From an uncultured Heliomicrobium sp. (GTDB lineage: Bacteria > Acidobacteriota > Blastocatellia > RBC074), in contig CAYRQB010000001.1 in NCBI GenBank assembly GCA_964426025.1, positions 1,151 through 65,150 on the forward strand: a stretch of DNA of 64,000 bases, given 5' to 3'. Positions 6,733 through 56,163 of this stretch are shown here, piece by piece; the first letter of the stretch is position 1, and each line of letters begins with the position of its first letter. The notes beneath the pieces are model-generated. The model ran no database searches. It saw only the letters and a program-made list of their open reading frames with translations, and had not been told where the DNA came from. The position numbers and the translations under genes were made by a program.

Positions 6733-7197
6733 ATGGCTTCTAGGAAAATCAAACCGGAAGATATTTCGGTCGGGCTGTTGGCCAAAGTTCAACGCAAACA
6801 ACCGAACCTGCCGCGCTTTGTCATTGTGCCCTCTCAATTGTTGACTGATTGGGGAATCAAGGAAACCACGATTGTCGAAGGTTCGCTGAACGGCATTGAT
6901 TTTGGACGCCGTTCGTTGAAACGCTGGGACGAGCAACGCTGGTTCATCGAATTGCCTGACACGGTCTGCAAAAAAGCCCGTGTGGATACTGGCCATTCGG
7001 TCACGCTGGTAATGTGGCTGGCGTTGAACGAAATGCCCGCGGAGTTGACGAAACTGATTGCCGACGATCCGCAGGCGAAATCCAATTGGGAAAAGATGAC
7101 CGCCAGTCAGCAGCGAATGCTGAAAGAACAGGTTGCCGCAGCCATACAACCGGCAACGCGCGAGCGGCGAGCCAGACTAGCTCTGTCAGGCAAATAA
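6733..7197 (+). CDS. DUF1905-like domain fused to a YdeI/OmpD-associated-like C-terminal domain
   Basis: 154-aa ORF. The N-terminal half resembles the DUF1905 beta-barrel. The C-terminal part, NWEKMTASQQRMLKEQVAAA, resembles the YdeI family. Confidence 0.5.
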   Translation: MASRKIKPEDISVGLLAKVQRKQPNLPRFVIVPSQLLTDWGIKETTIVEGSLNGIDFGRRSLKRWDEQRWFIELPDTVCKKARVDTGHSVTLVMWLALNEMPAELTKLIADDPQAKSNWEKMTASQQRMLKEQVAAAIQPATRERRARLALSGK

Positions 7198-7338
7198 GCC
7201 AAAACGAAATCTTCCGAGCCTGATTGTCGGCAAATCGCCATCAGCCAATGTCGTTTGCCAATCAGCGCTCAAGAAGATTTAGCTTTGCCAGTTCGTCCCT
7301 GAGCGGAGCGTCAGGTTATTGGTAACGAAAAAGAGATT

Positions 7339-7393
7339 ACGGAACAGACGGAAATAACGGAATGGACGGAAATTCCCCTTCCGTTTGTTCCGT
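7339..7393. promoter_or_regulatory. Array of six hexamers on a strict 9-bp period: ACGGAA four times, then TTCCGT twice
   Basis: ACGGAA occurs at 7339, 7348, 7357 and 7366. TTCCGT occurs at 7379 and 7388. The array lies about 80-130 nt upstream of the 7473 start. Confidence 0.5.
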
Positions 7394-7472
7394 CATTTTC
7401 CAGCTTTTCATTGCAGGCTTATTCGATGGCCTGAGCAGTTACCCTTTATCAACGAAACAAAGCGAGGGACTC

Positions 7473-10400
7473 ATGTATTCCAACCGGCTGAATCTCAAAC
7501 ATCGGCGAATCATCGCGCTTTCAGTTTTTCTGATTTCACTCTCCTTTCTTTTCTGGTTGGGCAAGAGCGAGGCCAGCCGTACGGCGAATACGGCGGCAGT
7601 TCGCCTTGCGCCCGTGAAGTTGAATCTTCAGTTCGGTGGTAAATGGGAAAAGCGTCTGGCTTTGCAGCGCGGAGAAACTTTCGAGCTTTCGGTCGGATTG
7701 CCATCGCCGTCGTCGTTGCCGCATCACGGGCGCATTGGCGTTCGCTGGGTGCTGGAGAAAGCCGAAGCAGGCGAAGCGTTGCCGATTGTCGCCGGGCGCA
7801 AAACAGATGCTTTCGGCATTTACACAGCGCCGACCACCGATTGGCGCAAAGTCCTGCATGCGCTCGACAGCGATGTTTATCTGGTTTATCGCGCTCCGGT
7901 CGCCGGGCAATATCGTTTGGAAATCGCGCCAATCACCGATGAAGCAAACATCTTCTCCAATCCTGAAAGCATTCGTTGGCGCGAAGACGGCGTCGCGCCG
8001 CAAGCTGTGAATTTCCCCGATAAAACTCCCTGGCCGAACGGCAAAACCGTTCCGCTGAACGTAACGATCAATCCGCTTGATCTGAATGATTCAGCGAAAG
8101 TCGGAAGCTTTGTTGAATCCGAGCCGAACGACACGCCCGAACAGGCACAGGAAGTCACGCTTCCCGAAGGCCCGGATGACAGTAAAGCCATTCAAGCCAT
8201 TCGCATCAACGGCGGAGCCGACGACATCGAATACTTCGACAATGGCAAAGTCGGCAAATCCGGCGACGATTGGTTTCGGCTGAATTTCAACGGCAAAGAA
8301 CCGCGATTGCTGACGGCGAATCTGGCGATTCCCGACCACACGCTGGCGGCGCAGTTGCGGTTTTACGCACTTGATGAAAGCGGCGCGCTCGGCGAATACA
8401 CCGAAGGCCGCAACGAAAACGAACGAACTCACCAGCAAAACGAACAACACAGAGCTTCGATAGTTCGGTTGCTGAAACCGGGCAAAACTTATTTGCTTCG
8501 CGCCGAAGCCAACGCGCCGGGTTATGAATTGGAGCTTCGCGTGTTGAAACCTGCGCCGTATGACGATCCGCGAATGGCTGTGCGACAGGCGGTGTACGAC
8601 CACCTTGGCCAAGTGGATTCGTGGCTGACCAATCGTCCGCGCGGAGCTTCGGTCGAACGACGCATTCGCGACACGGGCAATTTGATGGGCACGCATTGCA
8701 TGAGCTGTCACACGCAATCCGGCGTTTGGGGGACAGCCGGGCCTATGGAAAACGGCTACACGTTGGAAAACAAGCAAAACTTCCGGCGGTTGGTCAACGT
8801 GATGTATGAATCGCTGCGCCCGACCAATTACCTGAAAGACGCGGCGAACAACACCAGCCTGGCTCCGCTGGATGTGGGTGACGGCCCGGCAGGAACGCGC
8901 GTTGCAGGTCACAATGTTTGCACCGCCGAACGTGTCATTCCCGCGCGCAAGCTGCATTCGATGCAGGCGATTCGCGCCGCCAATCACACCATTCAAACCG
9001 CAGACCCCAGCGGCATCAATGCCGCCGGACCCGGATCGAACGTCGGCCAATCCATCGTGTACAACTACGCTGGAGAGATTTTGCGCACGGCTTGGGATCG
9101 CACCAACCATCCGCGTTATCTGGCTGCGCTGGAAGAAAAAGCCGACCGTATGCTCGGCGTTTTGCCGCGTTACAGCGACGACCTGTCGAATCGCATAGAG
9201 TTTTTCAAACGCTACTTCCCGCAGGATTACGTCGCGCAAAACCAGAAAGCGCGGACGATTTATCCCACGCTTCCGCCCGACCCGAAACCGCAACCGACTC
9301 CGACGCCATCAAATGACGGCAAACCGGTTGAACCTCCTCCCGCGATCTTTCCTGAATACAAACTGAAATCAGCCGACGCCGCCGCAAAGCTGTTGGAGCG
9401 CATCGCTGAAACGATCAAAAAAGACGAAGCGCGTTTGCGCGCGATTCAAAATGCAGACGGTTCGTGGGGATTCGATCCGGGCAAGCCCGACGGTGATAAA
9501 TGGAAAACCAACGGCGAATACGATCCGGCTCCGACGGCGTTGGCCTTGAGCGCATTTCACGCGCTGGGCTTCACGGACAAAGACCCGGCGGTTGCTCGCG
9601 GCGTCAAGGCTTTGTTGCGGATGCAAGACCCGTATGGCCGCTGGAACAAAAACGCCCTGACCGGTTTTGTGACGACCAGCTACGTGCTGCACGCGCTCGC
9701 GCGACTTTATCCTGAACAGCCTGTCAAACCGACTCGCGCCGAATTCACGCCTCGCGCTGGCGAATCTTTGCCAGCAACCATCGCGCGCGTTCGAGCGTTG
9801 TCGCACACAGATGATCCCGCGCTGGTGGATTTGATGATTCAGGCTTCGTTGCATCCGAGCGCGCAAGTTCGCGTCTGGTCGGCGATGGCGCTCGGCGGAG
9901 TTCATGACGAACGCGGCGTGCCGACTTTGATTAAACTGATGGGCGATCAGGTCAAGATGGTTCGTGACGCTGCGGCTTGGGCGATGGAACAAACTCTGCT
10001 CGATGACAAAGGTTTCGGCACGGTGTTCGTCGCTTACGAGACGGGCGGCGATCTGACACGCGAAAGCATTGCCAAAGCATTGGGCATCCGCGCCGATGCG
10101 GTGATGACCAAACCGACGTTCAGCAAAACGCGACTGACGGCTTTGCTCGATCGCGCGATCAACGACGACCGCCATCCGGCGGTTCGCGCGTGGGCTGCGC
10201 GTGCGGCGTGGCAATGGTGGATTTGGAATCCGCCTGTGCGTGAGGCGATAAATCAAAGTTGGACGCGGAAGTTGCTCGCCGCCGAATCGAACGCGCTGGT
10301 TGAAAACACGTTCCGTTACCAAAGCCACGCGCTGTTTGTCGTCAATGGCCACAAAGCCAACGGCAGCGAAGAGCATCAATACAAAGAACTGTCCGGGCTG

Positions 10401-13504: not shown

Positions 13505-13566
13505 AGCTCTATCCAGTTTTCACGGTTTGGAAGCGCTACCGCAATTTCCATTGGTAAGGAGAGGGA

Positions 13567-13661
13567 TTAGCCATTAACCATCAGCCATTAACCATTAACA
13601 GACAGGGGGCGGTTTTCTTACCCTGACTAATAATGGTTAGTGGCTGATGGTTAATGGCTAA
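13567..13661. repeat. Large hairpin formed by 32-nt inverted arms
   Basis: The arms TTAGCCATTAACCATCAGCCATTAACCATTAA and TTAATGGTTAGTGGCTGATGGTTAATGGCTAA differ at one position. Each arm is built from CCATTAACCAT units. A roughly 30-nt loop separates them, and a T-rich run on the + strand follows. Confidence 0.6.
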
Positions 13662-13727
13662 TTTCGATTTTTAGCTTTTGTTTCATCAGACGTTTACGCA
13701 TTGAATTACTGGTAGCGGAGGTTTGGA

Positions 13728-30463: not shown

Positions 30464-31218
30464 AGATGTTTACGATTCTTACTTATCACTCGATTGACGA
30501 CAGCGGTTCGGTGGTTTCCGTCGCGCCGCAAACTTTCGCCGATCAGATGGCTTGTTTGTCGGAAATCGGTTATCGCGGAATTTCAATGCGCGAAGCCGTC
30601 GCTCATTTCAAATCGCAAGGCCGCTGGCCGGAAAAATGCGCCGCGCTGACTTTCGATGACGGCTTCGCCAACTTTTACGACGACGCGACACCTGTGCTGG
30701 CTCGGCACAATTTTTCGGCGACGGTGTTCGTCATCAGCGGTCATATGGATGGTCGCAACGATTGGGCCGAACCGCCCGCCGGTTTGGGTTGGCGCGACAT
30801 GCTGTCGTGGAAACAGGTGCGAGAGTTGTCGGCGTTGGGAATTGAGATTGGCGCGCACACTCGCACGCATCCCGATTTGCGCGCTTTGTCATCCAGCCAA
30901 CTCGAAGAAGAGATCGCCGGTTCATGCGTCGAAATCAGCGATTACACCGGCCAGCAGGTTGAAAGTTTCGCCTACCCATTCGGTTACCTGGACAATTCGG
31001 CGGAAGATGCAGTGGCGCGAGCGGTTCGTTCGGCCTGCACTACAGAATTGCGCAGAGCGAACGACGACCCGCTTCATTTGCTGCCTCGTGTTGATATGTA
31101 TTACCTGCAATCGCCGCGTCAGTTGCAATTGCTGGTCAAAGGAAAACTTGACGGTTATCTAACCATCAGGCGTTGGGGCCGAGCCGTCAAACAAACACTG
31201 ACCGAACGCAGACATTAA
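30460..31218 (+). CDS. Polysaccharide deacetylase (CE4, NodB-homology domain)
   Basis: ALTFDDGFANFYD carries the DD metal-binding motif. ATVFVISGH and IEIGAHTRTHPDL carry the His motifs. Confidence 0.85.
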   Translation: MKMFTILTYHSIDDSGSVVSVAPQTFADQMACLSEIGYRGISMREAVAHFKSQGRWPEKCAALTFDDGFANFYDDATPVLARHNFSATVFVISGHMDGRNDWAEPPAGLGWRDMLSWKQVRELSALGIEIGAHTRTHPDLRALSSSQLEEEIAGSCVEISDYTGQQVESFAYPFGYLDNSAEDAVARAVRSACTTELRRANDDPLHLLPRVDMYYLQSPRQLQLLVKGKLDGYLTIRRWGRAVKQTLTERRH

Positions 31219-31363
31219 GCCGGAAAGCGGACAATAGCCGGAACACGGAAATAGCCGGAACGCGGACGTTCCCGTCCGCAAACTGGTTGGCGGACTTCCA
31301 GTCCGCCCTTCACGCTGGAGTAGATTTCTCAATTACAACATACACGCGGACAGAATGTCCGCG
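31219..31363. promoter_or_regulatory. Three tandem 17-bp direct repeats followed by three GCGGAC..GTCCGC hairpins
   Basis: The direct repeats are gccggaaagcggacaat, agccggaacacggaaat and agccggaacgcggacgtt, spanning 31219..31270. The hairpins are GCGGACgttcccGTCCGC at 31262..31279, GGCGGACTtccAGTCCGCC at 31289..31307 and CGCGGACAgaaTGTCCGCG at 31345..31363. Confidence 0.6.
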
Positions 31364-31378
31364 TTCCAAGGAATGACC

Positions 31379-53387: not shown

Positions 53388-54209
53388 ATGAAGCGACAGG
53401 TGCTGATTGCCGACTTAAAAGAGTCGGTCAACAAGAATGTTCGTTTGGTCGCCAATGACGATTCTGTATCACTGGTCAGCGAGCCTGAATTTGAGATCGC
53501 GGGTTATGGGAGTAGGACCAGGCCCATACTCGTAAAGCAGTTTAAGTCATATGATTTACAACTGCTTAAGGAAATTGATGCCGCTCGTGAGGATGAGCGT
53601 CGTCGTCTGTCTCGCGAATTACACGACCAGTTGGGGCAAGACCTGGTTGCATTATCGCTGGGGTTGAGATCGCTGAGAAAATCTGCCGCATACGATTCCA
53701 TCACAGGCAGCCAAATAGACGAATTGCAAGGGCTGGTTGATCAGCTTGGGATGCATGTCCATGAAATTGCTATGACATTGCGTCCGACAATTCTTGATGA
53801 TTTGGGATTGCAAATGGCTTTGACGAGCCTTGCGGAGCAATGGTCGCTGAATACCGGCATTGAAGTGAATTGCCGTATTTCGGGATTGGAAAATCAATAC
53901 ATCCCCAAGCCTGTTGAAACAACGATTTACAGAGTCTCGCAGGAAGCTCTAACAAACGTCTACAAACATGCTAAGGCGGATAACGTAGACCTAACCTTGA
54001 ACCGTGATGGCCGTAACTTAGTAGTGGTTATTTCTGATGATGGGAAGGGAATTGACTTTGAAGCTTTGAACAAAGCATCAGGGCTAAGTCATGGGTTGGG
54101 ACTGACCGGAATGCGCGAGCGAGTAACTCTGGTCAATGGCACGTTGAAGATTAAATCATCTCCAAACAAAGGGACGTCAATAATAATGAACATCCCACTT
54201 TTATCGTGA
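53388..54209 (+). CDS. Cytoplasmic sensor histidine kinase (HisKA_3 family) lacking TM or sensor domains
   Basis: RRRLSRELHDQLGQDL is the H-box. The HATPase_c region is LTGMRERVTLVNGTLKI. The N-terminal region is only about 75 aa. Confidence 0.8.
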   Translation: MKRQVLIADLKESVNKNVRLVANDDSVSLVSEPEFEIAGYGSRTRPILVKQFKSYDLQLLKEIDAAREDERRRLSRELHDQLGQDLVALSLGLRSLRKSAAYDSITGSQIDELQGLVDQLGMHVHEIAMTLRPTILDDLGLQMALTSLAEQWSLNTGIEVNCRISGLENQYIPKPVETTIYRVSQEALTNVYKHAKADNVDLTLNRDGRNLVVVISDDGKGIDFEALNKASGLSHGLGLTGMRERVTLVNGTLKIKSSPNKGTSIIMNIPLLS

Positions 54210-54220
54210 AAAGTACACCG

Positions 54221-54880
54221 ATGACCAAGTTAAGGGTCTTCCTTGTTGATGACCATCCAATTGTTCGCAAAGGGTTAAAGGCTCTAATTGACGAGCAGCT
54301 TGATATGGAAGTTGTTGGTGAAGCAGGTGATGGGCGTGTGGCTTTATTACAGGTAAAAGAGTTGCAGCCGGACGTTATGATTCTCGACCTGACGTTGCCG
54401 GATATGAATGGCATACAGGTCATGGAGCGTGTTAAACAGCTTTGCCCTAAGGTAAATGTTTTGGTGCTGACGATTCATGAAGCCAGCGGCTATCTTCGTC
54501 AGTTATTTCAAACGGGCGCAGCCGGTTATTTGTTAAAGAGAACTGCCGGGGAAGAGTTAACGCATGCTATACGGGTTGTCGCAACCGGCGGCGCTTATCT
54601 TGACCCTACTCTTGCAGGCAAGATGGTAACCACGTTGGTGCATCATTCACCTCAGAAGGGCAAAGACCCCGGCGCCCCCAACAAGCTAAGTGACCGTGAA
54701 AAAGAAGTGTTGCGCTTGATTGCTCTGGGTTACAGCAACAAGGAAATAGCCGCGCAACTTGATTTAAGCGCAAAAACAATCGAAACATATAAAGCTAGGC
54801 TGATTGAAAAACTTGGGTTAAGTAGTCGTTCTGAACTGGTCAGATATGCCTTGAATCAAGGCTGGCTCCAGGATGTTTGA
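54221..54880 (+). CDS. NarL/LuxR-family response regulator
   Basis: VFLVDDHPIVRKGL...VMILDLTLPDMNG is the receiver domain with the phospho-acceptor Asp. The HTH region is LSDREKEVLRLIALGYSNKEIA. The start could instead be the GTG at 54206. Confidence 0.85.
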   Translation: MTKLRVFLVDDHPIVRKGLKALIDEQLDMEVVGEAGDGRVALLQVKELQPDVMILDLTLPDMNGIQVMERVKQLCPKVNVLVLTIHEASGYLRQLFQTGAAGYLLKRTAGEELTHAIRVVATGGAYLDPTLAGKMVTTLVHHSPQKGKDPGAPNKLSDREKEVLRLIALGYSNKEIAAQLDLSAKTIETYKARLIEKLGLSSRSELVRYALNQGWLQDV

Positions 54881-55446: not shown

Positions 55447-56163
55447 TTGAGAACAGCAGTTATATCCCCCACGCAGAAACCAGTACGTGTATTGTTGATT
55501 CAAAATCAGGAATGCGTTCGATTTGGTTTGCGTTTGTTGATTGAAAGTAAGCCCGAAGTTGAAGTGATAGGTGAAGCTTCGACATATGCGCAGGCTCTCG
55601 CAGTCATTGAAAGTCAGCCGGATGTTATCCTGCTTGATCATGAACATGGCGGAGATTGCGATATTGATGCTATCCCGAATTTGCTTGCGGCGGCAAAAGG
55701 CGCGCGCGTGCTGGTGTTCACGGGTGAATGGAACCCTGAAGCCCATTACAGAGCATTCGGGCTTGGAGCAATGGGGCTGGTGTTCAAAACCGATTCCCCG
55801 GAAGTGTTAATCAAGGCGATTGAGAAAGTCCACGCTGGCGAAGCCTGGATTGAAAGCGTTACTATGGCCCGTCTTCTCAGAGAGATGTGGCAGGGTAAGG
55901 TCAAAGCTGGAGAAAATCACCATCCCACCCCGGCAAAACGTAACCTAACAAAACTGACTCAGCGAGAGCGAGAAGTCGTTGCTTTAATCGGAGAGCGATT
56001 GCAAAACAAACAGATTGCCGATCGCTTGTTCGTCTGTGAAGCAACTGTTCGCCATCATCTAACGTCAATTTACGACAAACTAAATGTAAAAAACCGCTTT
56101 GATTTGGCGCTCTACGCCTATCAACACGGCCTGGCCAAGCAACCATTGCTTGGCGCAGAGTAA
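55447..56163 (+). CDS. Atypical LuxR-family response-regulator-like protein (receiver lacking the acidic pair)
   Basis: TTG start 6 nt after an AGGAGG. VRVLLIQNQECVRFGL occupies the usual LLVDDH position with N-Q-E. An Asp is retained in VILLDHEHGGD. The C-terminal LuxR HTH is LTQREREVVALIGERLQNKQIADRL. Confidence 0.75.
   Translation: MRTAVISPTQKPVRVLLIQNQECVRFGLRLLIESKPEVEVIGEASTYAQALAVIESQPDVILLDHEHGGDCDIDAIPNLLAAAKGARVLVFTGEWNPEAHYRAFGLGAMGLVFKTDSPEVLIKAIEKVHAGEAWIESVTMARLLREMWQGKVKAGENHHPTPAKRNLTKLTQREREVVALIGERLQNKQIADRLFVCEATVRHHLTSIYDKLNVKNRFDLALYAYQHGLAKQPLLGAE

Follow-up and report, generated by a model that had tools for sequence, protein, structure and literature searches.

A partly eroded palindrome of 9-bp-periodic hexamers upstream of a heme/HEAT gene and its possible relation to arrays around GxxExxY genes

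What is the array of six hexamers that precedes the gene of a large heme protein in the stretch of 64,000 nucleotides analysed in this study, which is here referred to as the window? A sequence-only reading of this DNA had assigned all copies to a single 9-bp register and had interpreted them either as the site array of an oligomerising regulator or as a small tandem-repeat element. The analysis described below has identified the region 7330–7397 as belonging to a dispersed family of intergenic palindromes, termed class B, of which it is a partly eroded copy and whose repeat pattern recurs around a family of small nuclease-type genes.

The hexamer array and its surroundings

The positions of the six hexamers in that reading are all exact, with ACGGAA starting at 7339, 7348, 7357 and 7366 and its complement TTCCGT at 7379 and 7388, and the sequence between 7339 and 7393 is ACGGAAcagACGGAAataACGGAAtggACGGAA-attcccc-TTCCGTttgTTCCGT. 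The common register holds for the forward copies (7339+9k), whereas the change in orientation is a step of 13 bp if measured from start to start or from centre to centre, and the reverse copies are in phase only by the 5' ends on their own strand (7384 = 7339+45 and 7393 = 7339+54). This single change in orientation, which had been correctly recognized, marks the centre of a palindrome. The left arm (7339..7371, plus strand) contains four ACGGAA units with a period of 9 bp, whose spacers CAG, ATA and TGG lead to a super-period of 18 bp. It is preceded by a purine-rich outer flank (7330..7338, plus strand) encompassing the AAGAGATT region, where the family consensus is AGAAGAGAGAnn and where the class B arm profile aligns from 7330; the AAGAGATT variant is also present in L095. 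A centre or loop with the sequence ATTCCCC (7372..7378) is followed by a truncated right arm (7379..7393, minus strand) consisting of TTCCGT-TTG-TTCCGT, which are the two outer units of a full arm, and by the remnant CATT of its outer flank (7394..7397, minus strand; family consensus CATCTCTCTTCT). In the predicted fold, the units of the right arm pair with units 1–2 of the left arm.

The window contains 21 and 26 copies of ACGGAA and TTCCGT compared to about 15–16 expected per strand, and among clusters of any hexamer together with its complement the described array is the densest in the window, with six copies in 60 bp and four in the runner-up. First-order Markov shuffling of the window gave maxima of three or four copies and none of 300 shuffles reached five, which bears out the earlier view that the arrangement is not random. 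There is no further exact match to ACGGAA-N3-ACGGAA in the 64 kb, and Tandem Repeats Finder calls periods of 9 and 18 at the array.

The array is intergenic, located between the stop of a DUF1905/OmdA-like gene (6733–7197, plus strand) and the start at 7473 of the heme/HEAT gene on the same strand, which encodes a protein of 1488 residues with HEAT repeats, a prenyltransferase-like domain and two CxxCH motifs. Its distance from this start had been given correctly and amounts to 80–134 nt. An ATG at 7362, at which an overlapping open reading frame had been noted, is in frame but is not the start, since the identical database protein (P0001, 1488 aa) begins at 7473. A scan for sigma-70 promoters returned none near the element, and the sole terminator-like site found nearby (7298–7315) is located upstream of it. 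The region from 18322 to 63996 is occupied by about 45 kb of genes for glycan and exopolysaccharide biosynthesis, including genes for GT2, GT4, GT87, PMT_2, CofD-like, UbiA, AsnB, radical SAM/SPASM, B12-radical SAM, Wzz, BcsQ-like ATPase, sugar transferase and Poly_export proteins, with a HisKA_3 kinase and two NarL-type regulators (54206–54880 and 55447–56163) embedded in this cluster. The names of database homologues point to an Acidobacteriota MAG (metagenome-assembled genome) of Blastocatellia type as the source of the window.

A dispersed family of intergenic palindromes

When 185,579 species-representative genomes were scanned for (ACGGAA-N3)x3, at least 120 loci were obtained, compared to about 17 matches expected by chance according to our own estimate from the size of the collection (596 Gb). 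Among the matches listed, an inverted partner is present for 73 arrays (median gap 44 bp) and three kinds of array can be distinguished. Class B is a palindrome of about 90–110 bp, in which an arm of about 45 nt with the sequence AGAAGAGAGAnn-(ACGGAA-CAR-ACGGAA-ATA-ACGGAA-CAR-ACGGAA) is followed by a loop of 12–45 nt and the complement of the arm. Its hosts are several metagenome-assembled genomes (MAGs) of Acidobacteriota/Blastocatellia together with a few probably mis-binned contigs, and complete copies include L020, L022, L076, L079, L087, L104 and L107. Class A, which is found in many phyla, is built from three CACGGAA-NN units and is frequently accompanied by an inverted partner, again at a median gap of 44 bp. 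The third kind, long pure tandem arrays, accounts for nine of the matches listed and is probably unrelated to the other two.

The relationship of the window array to class B was defined with a profile built from 19 arms of other genomes, from which the window was left out. In a search with nhmmer, the left arm (7330–7371) matches profile positions 4–45 with E=9.8e-12 and the right arm (7397–7379, minus strand) positions 9–27 only, with E=0.01, and there is no further match in the 64-kb window. The window copy has thus kept its entire left arm and just the two outer units of the right. The small repeat element of the earlier interpretation is hence real, although it is not a tandem repeat that has grown locally but one copy of a dispersed palindromic family. 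The density of this family is low and patchy, with one copy in these 64 kb and no profile match in 335 kb of other Blastocatellia DNA from the orthologous loci of the heme/HEAT gene.

Copies of class B are always intergenic and are found between co-directional, divergent and convergent genes, often a few nucleotides from stop or start codons. No neighbouring gene family recurs around the arrays among the matches listed, with the exception of GxxExxY. Open reading frames shared within 2.5 kb of arrays (GT4, VWA, GFO/IDH/MocA, ABC ATPase and SpoU methylase) were dismissed as coincidences because these families are abundant. The flanks of 14 class B copies do not contain a consistent direct repeat indicative of a target-site duplication, and no pair of filled and empty sites was found; for such a comparison, none of the fetched orthologous loci offers an OmdA-like upstream neighbour or an alignable intergenic region. 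The palindromic symmetry stops 9–17 nt outside the first unit, and the loops are unrelated even within the same MAG (L076 compared to L107 and L095 to L104). In class B copies, ACGGAA has commonly decayed to ACGAAA. None of the 18 copies that were read contains a gene between its arms, and a search with the arms as peptides retrieved nine short ORFs devoid of domains, none with PF13366.

The pairing between arms was investigated in nine complete copies with a stem of 45 pairs. In this set, 92.3% of the stem cells are paired and double changes are found in 14 of the 45 pairs, values that are not reached in any of 500 shuffles, with controls in which the arms were slid being 43–55% paired. Within a copy, both arms have idiosyncratic spacers and flank bases in common. 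Since the arms co-vary, the element has been maintained as a palindrome or a hairpin. There is no RNA-type bias among the mismatches of the transcribed strand (22 G.U compared to 18 A.C), and the best copies retain 43/43 and 42/43 Watson-Crick pairs. As judged from these sequences, class B elements appear to be DNA palindromes that arise perfect and subsequently decay, a behaviour that an RNA helix under selection would not fit.

Several features of the scanned loci were noted in passing. The long pure arrays range from 10 to over 25 units, as in (ACGGAATGG)n (L017 1639–1887, L010 6–119, L039 1505–1771 and L117 7–129), in MAGs of Chlorobiaceae, Gemmatimonadetes, Helicobacteraceae and Lentisphaeria, and could represent microsatellites or coding tripeptide repeats. 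Inverted arrays of the class A type (aaccACGGAAagc... / ...TTCCGTggtt) are present on contigs of Methanosarcinaceae and Methanobacteriota MAGs (L063 6010–6079 and L024 5595–5647), and the array pattern may thus extend to archaea if the binning is right. In a Prosthecobacter MAG (L068 6790–7484), four copies of a tandem unit of about 222 bp each contain a CTACGGAAyACACGGAAGGCACGGAA array, and in an Opitutaceae MAG (L032 5040–7605) arrays recur every 115–220 bp inside a longer repeated unit; both repeats look satellite-like or BIME-like. In L079 (3254–3420), an ATG in the outer flank opens a frame that extends through an entire class B palindrome (MTEQTEITEQTE...PSVPLFPSVPSS) and leads, without a change of frame, into a sequence that by eye resembles the N-terminal end of a hydrogenase maturation protease. 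Class B-type palindromes are also spanned by short hypothetical ORFs in the database, and these elements therefore create spurious or extended gene calls.

Alternative explanations of the window array

The proposal of an operator, in which an oligomerising factor of the NarL/GerE or RHH type would bind the six hexamers and control the heme/HEAT gene, is in our view very improbable. Short direct and inverted repeats at 80–134 nt from a start codon, the presence of two genes for NarL-type regulators in the window and a leader of the orthologues that contains two CGAAA units 9 bp apart and an inverted TTYCG at a similar position would all be in line with such a role. However, a comparison of orthologous upstream regions, which had been suggested as a check, revealed that the array is not conserved. 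In a set of 86 loci of the heme/HEAT gene at 45–88% protein identity, 82 were scanned and none contains a cluster of three or more ACGGAA/TTCCGT copies anywhere, including about 1.5 kb of upstream sequence, nor was such an array found upon inspection of the upstream 200 nt of six among the closest orthologues. Elsewhere, the same 45-nt arm with its flank and spacers adjoins unrelated genes in all orientations, even directly after stop codons, and the co-variation of both arms at non-conserved positions would be unneeded for the binding of a protein. The two regulators, which had been suggested for footprinting, are encoded 47 kb away inside the polysaccharide cluster, and ACGGAA does not resemble the NarL heptamer TACYYMT. 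The remark that sites with a 9-bp phase would spiral around the helix is a fair account of what a cognate protein would meet, with an element-associated nuclease being a more likely candidate for this protein than a transcription factor. We regard as highly unlikely a further idea, in which an old insertion of the palindrome was recruited as leader or promoter by the heme/HEAT gene of this clade, with the leader of the relatives as its decayed functional descendant and the window copy as a better-preserved or re-expanded version. The nine closest orthologues (L001 160–260, L002 2900–3000, L204–L207 at about 2400–2500, L125 and L126 among them) have different upstream neighbours and share a conserved leader of about 100 nt, in which a near-palindrome GCCGAAAATTTTGTAC is accompanied by a small CGAAAA...TTTTCG hairpin and by a ribosome-binding region with conserved AAGCGAGG, and of which the window retains only the last part. 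In this leader, ACGAAAcgcCGAAAA with its two CGAAA units, a loop and the inverted TTYCG are located at −60 to −100, at a similar distance from the ATG as the window array, and they are conserved in all nine loci while the surrounding intergenic DNA is not alignable. The placement of the window units on the leader in an alignment with MAFFT and the decay of ACGGAA to ACGAAA would both be compatible with a common origin. Conversely, neither profile detects the other sequence, as searches with the class B profile do not recover the leader even at E<=10 and those with the leader profile do not recover the window, and a near-consensus arm of 42 nt is hard to square with an insertion that is older than a protein divergence of 12%. 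The orthologues' leader may be a clade-specific regulatory leader, and it is conceivable that leader and window element are related at this site by ancestry or in regulation, or that the window element had inserted into a leader of this type.

A functional RNA hairpin, acting as stabiliser of a 5'-UTR, as processing site for RNase III or as terminator or insulator between the OmdA-like and the heme/HEAT genes, would account for the stable predicted fold of the window copy (−30.3 kcal/mol, z=−4.3, with none of 200 shuffles as good), for the location of both flanking genes on the plus strand and for the stem co-variation across copies. We still consider it unlikely in light of the mismatch pattern described above, the lack of any Rfam match at E<=1 between 6000 and 9000, and the terminator scan, which does not call the element. 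Its stem is followed by CAUCUCUCUUCU-type sequence (CATTTTCC in the window and CATCTCTCTTCT in the family) instead of a U-tract, copies also reside between divergent genes and the sequence of the units, beyond their pairing, is conserved across phyla. Among other roles in a transcript, a leader peptide (ATG-ACG-GAA...) was rejected, as the ATG is not conserved and is replaced by AAA, AGC, AAC and ATT in other copies, and so were CsrA-type GGA sites and TRAP-like RNA binding, where the inverted arm would sequester the GGA motifs. A local accident, by which replication slippage would have multiplied a 9- or 18-bp unit and inverted copies would have appeared by chance, could invoke the periods called by Tandem Repeats Finder and the pure long ACGGAA-N3 arrays found elsewhere (L017, L010, L039). 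None of the shuffles reaches five copies, and this explanation is effectively refuted by the match of flank, spacers and inverted arm to a profile derived from other genomes.

Arrays around GxxExxY genes and a proposed origin of class B

In the 870 kb of array loci, all three ORFs of the GxxExxY/PDDEXK_3 family among the matches listed are located directly between or beside arrays (L085, L122 and L074). This association was examined in reverse with GxxExxY genes that were sampled independently of arrays. Five metagenomic homologues, which were chosen solely for their long contigs, are all bracketed by inverted arrays of three heptamers with a 9-bp period, often with several tandem copies of the array per side. 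Their units are lineage-specific (CACGGAA, CACGGAT, CGCGGAN and CGCAGAT), and in a motif-free autocorrelation the flanks, unlike the coding sequence, have an excess at lag 9. Among six copies on plasmids and chromids of named bacteria, for which finished sequences exist, three have clear arrays and two more have partial ones. In L219 and L220 arrays bracket the gene, in L216 a full palindrome is located just downstream, and L215, L218 and L217 contain one inverted unit per side, a short array that is only upstream and a direct repeat, respectively. With respect to hosts, units of the CACAGAGGA type are found on one side of the gene in Bacteroides finegoldii (L219, WP_032839887.1) and CTCTGTG units on the other, the flanks are CACAGAGA and TCTCTGTG in Bernardetia, a full CGCGGAT palindrome resides beside the gene in Gemmatirosa, one inverted unit is found on either side in Treponema, the copy from Fusobacteria has a direct repeat and that from Persicobacter an array upstream only. 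Arrays also accompany five of six close proviral homologues, and five distant homologues have none. Matches to the pattern on viral contigs are mostly solo arms of units that do not start with C and that are found without a GxxExxY gene, and probably represent a different phenomenon, possibly of coding nature. Taken together, GxxExxY/PDDEXK_3 genes are bracketed by the same array pattern in many phyla. The common core of the cassette unit is C-R-C-R-G-A, with three or more heptamers at a 9-bp period in inverted arms, and the arrays sit tightly between genes.

The GxxExxY family, in which the catalytic residues E32, D71, E81 and K83 are invariant, comprises about 29,600 clusters at 50% identity, and most of its contigs are 1–2 kb long, as expected for multi-copy DNA. 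An AlphaFold2 model (pLDDT 92) has its nearest folds in Cas4, enzymes of the lambda-exonuclease type and Hjc resolvases, none of which is close. A sequence search of the PDB did not return a match, and PADLOC and PHROGs gave weak similarity to Cas4-like proteins and endonucleases with no clear defence-system or phage family. In a survey of PD-(D/E)XK proteins from 2012 (PMC3424549), GxxExxY/PDDEXK_3 was listed with an unknown function and with multiple events of lateral transfer. We found no description of the genomic context of its genes, including the 9-bp-periodic arrays, in the searchable literature. Some members (P0236–P0240, P0245 and others) are tandem two-domain fusions of 250–277 residues. 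In L213 (700–1000 and 1505–1950) and in the flanks of L208 and L209, five to eight tandem copies of the three-unit array with spacers of 20–40 bp are found per side, forward arrays upstream and inverted ones downstream, and the array modules themselves appear to have been amplified.

How class B relates to these cassettes is less direct. With four units in one arm and two in the other, the window copy follows the cassette plan of heptamers at a 9-bp period in two inverted arms. Its units, (G/A)ACGGAA, share ACGGA with the cassette core but have no leading C and a purine-rich outer end. Class B in general differs from cassette arrays in that it has four instead of three units and complementary spacers, and in that its outer flank is purine-rich where the cassettes have CC/GG. 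A link is provided by L226, where (A)CGGAATAA x3 precedes and TTCCGTTAA x3 follows the ORF and where the cassette unit is ACGGAA preceded by A, as in class B. In light of these differences, the assignment of both to one superfamily rests on the shared pattern and on the bridge provided by L226, and it is weakened because no class B copy with cargo was found; neither the window nor any class B locus contains a GxxExxY ORF. We consider this assignment somewhat more likely than not. No other small cargo family recurs beside arrays.

The explanation that we consider likely overall is that the segment at 7330–7397 is a class B copy with the GxxExxY-linked array pattern that resides in the window as a cargo-less passenger. 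In the proposed mechanism, the arrays would be multi-site ends that are recognized by the PD-(D/E)XK nuclease encoded in the cassette. Class A and the cassettes have spacers that are not complementary and heptamers that are conserved across phyla, and this favours sequence-specific recognition over pairing as such. The cassettes would be selfish units, mobile or homing, that are wedged in between genes of the host, as in L214, and the gene-less arrays and palindromes, which far outnumber the cassettes, would be their cargo-less derivatives, akin to MITEs or REPINs and including class B and the window copy. The latter would probably be an inert passenger. If transcribed, it would form a hairpin of about −30 kcal/mol at 80–143 nt upstream of the start codon, whose effect on the heme/HEAT gene would be a side effect at most. 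It is a tentative extension of this view that the GxxExxY family might be the protein part of an undescribed class of selfish elements with inverted triple-heptamer arrays and many cargo-less palindromes. Such elements would range across Acidobacteriota, Verrucomicrobiota, Planctomycetota, Bacteroidota, Proteobacteria, Gemmatimonadota, Chloroflexota and Spirochaetota, with MAGs of Methanosarcinaceae and Methanobacteriota containing arrays but no cassette.

Among known systems, class B would by analogy work most like REP/REPIN or MITE families, yet it departs from both in the features that define them. REPs and REPINs are stem-loops of 20–40 bp with a terminal GTAG or CGTC tag, and REPs have stems of 8–9 bp, loops of 4–5 nt and an HUH tyrosine transposase as partner (PMC3733652). 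With this system and its RAYT enzymes, class B shares dispersed, non-coding intergenic palindromes that are devoid of target-site duplications and often found as inverted pairs or clusters, and the link to a small enzyme gene with repeats on its own flanks. In contrast to REPs, class B arms are about 45 nt long and composed of 9-bp units, they do not carry a tag and their copy density is low. The gene associated with the wider array family encodes a PD-(D/E)XK nuclease, whereas no RAYT gene was seen in the 8-kb array loci. MITEs such as Correia elements and Nezha are equally short, non-coding, bounded by inverted repeats and intergenic, and they also outnumber the gene-carrying form, but class B lacks a target-site duplication, its internal sequence is not conserved even within one genome and no transposase of a known IS family resides near the arrays. 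Contiguous short units in direct and inverted orientation, with a period below one helical turn that implies cooperative binding of multiple subunits, are further found in arrays bound by RHH proteins, such as the heptads recognized by omega of pSM19035 and the tetramer boxes of ParG, which are operators and centromeres beside their own plasmid operons. Unlike those, class B consists of dispersed chromosomal copies next to unrelated genes with no RHH gene, and the likeness concerns the repeat pattern only. Free-standing homing endonuclease genes resemble the cassettes as small nuclease-type ORFs wedged precisely between conserved, undisrupted genes (compare L214), although they do not need terminal arrays. 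The cassettes may also be likened to intervening sequences of 23S rRNA with small ORFs, where inverted repeats bracket the ORF. The L214 cassette (960–1470) has CGCAGAT arrays and its own AAGGAGG ribosome-binding site and is located exactly between genes for a UvrD-type helicase and a PDDEXK_1 nuclease, an AddAB/AdnAB-like pair, with the following ATG 8 nt after the array.

For the window, our results remove a tempting regulatory annotation, as the array says nothing about the control of the heme/HEAT gene. The copy is most likely ordinary decaying selfish DNA, and the interest lies in the wider architecture, where the follow-up has supplied a concrete candidate for the DNA partner of GxxExxY/PDDEXK_3 proteins. 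If the nuclease recognizes its own triple 9-bp arrays, this would constitute a new route for the propagation of gene cassettes by PD-(D/E)XK enzymes and also a new source of MITE- and REP-like palindromes. In practical terms, such palindromes break metagenome assemblies, create spurious ORFs and can put hairpins into operons.

Two other intergenic repeats were observed in the window. The first, at 13563–13664, is a palindrome with ATTAGCCATTAACCATCAGCCATTAACCATTAAC arms of tandem 7/14-bp units, a 30-nt loop and the near-complement, located between the start of a sulfatase gene (13504, minus strand) and the stop of an epimerase gene (13728, minus strand). Its repeat pattern is as in the array at 7339–7393, with a different unit and period. 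The second, at 31204–31368 between a polysaccharide deacetylase gene and a radical SAM/SPASM gene, consists of four tandem units of 17–18 bp (CCGGAAcGCGGACaatAG, one with CACGGAA) followed by three small hairpins of the type GCGGAC-n5/6-GTCCGC, and its CGCGGAC core is similar to the unit on the flanks of the L213 GxxExxY gene.
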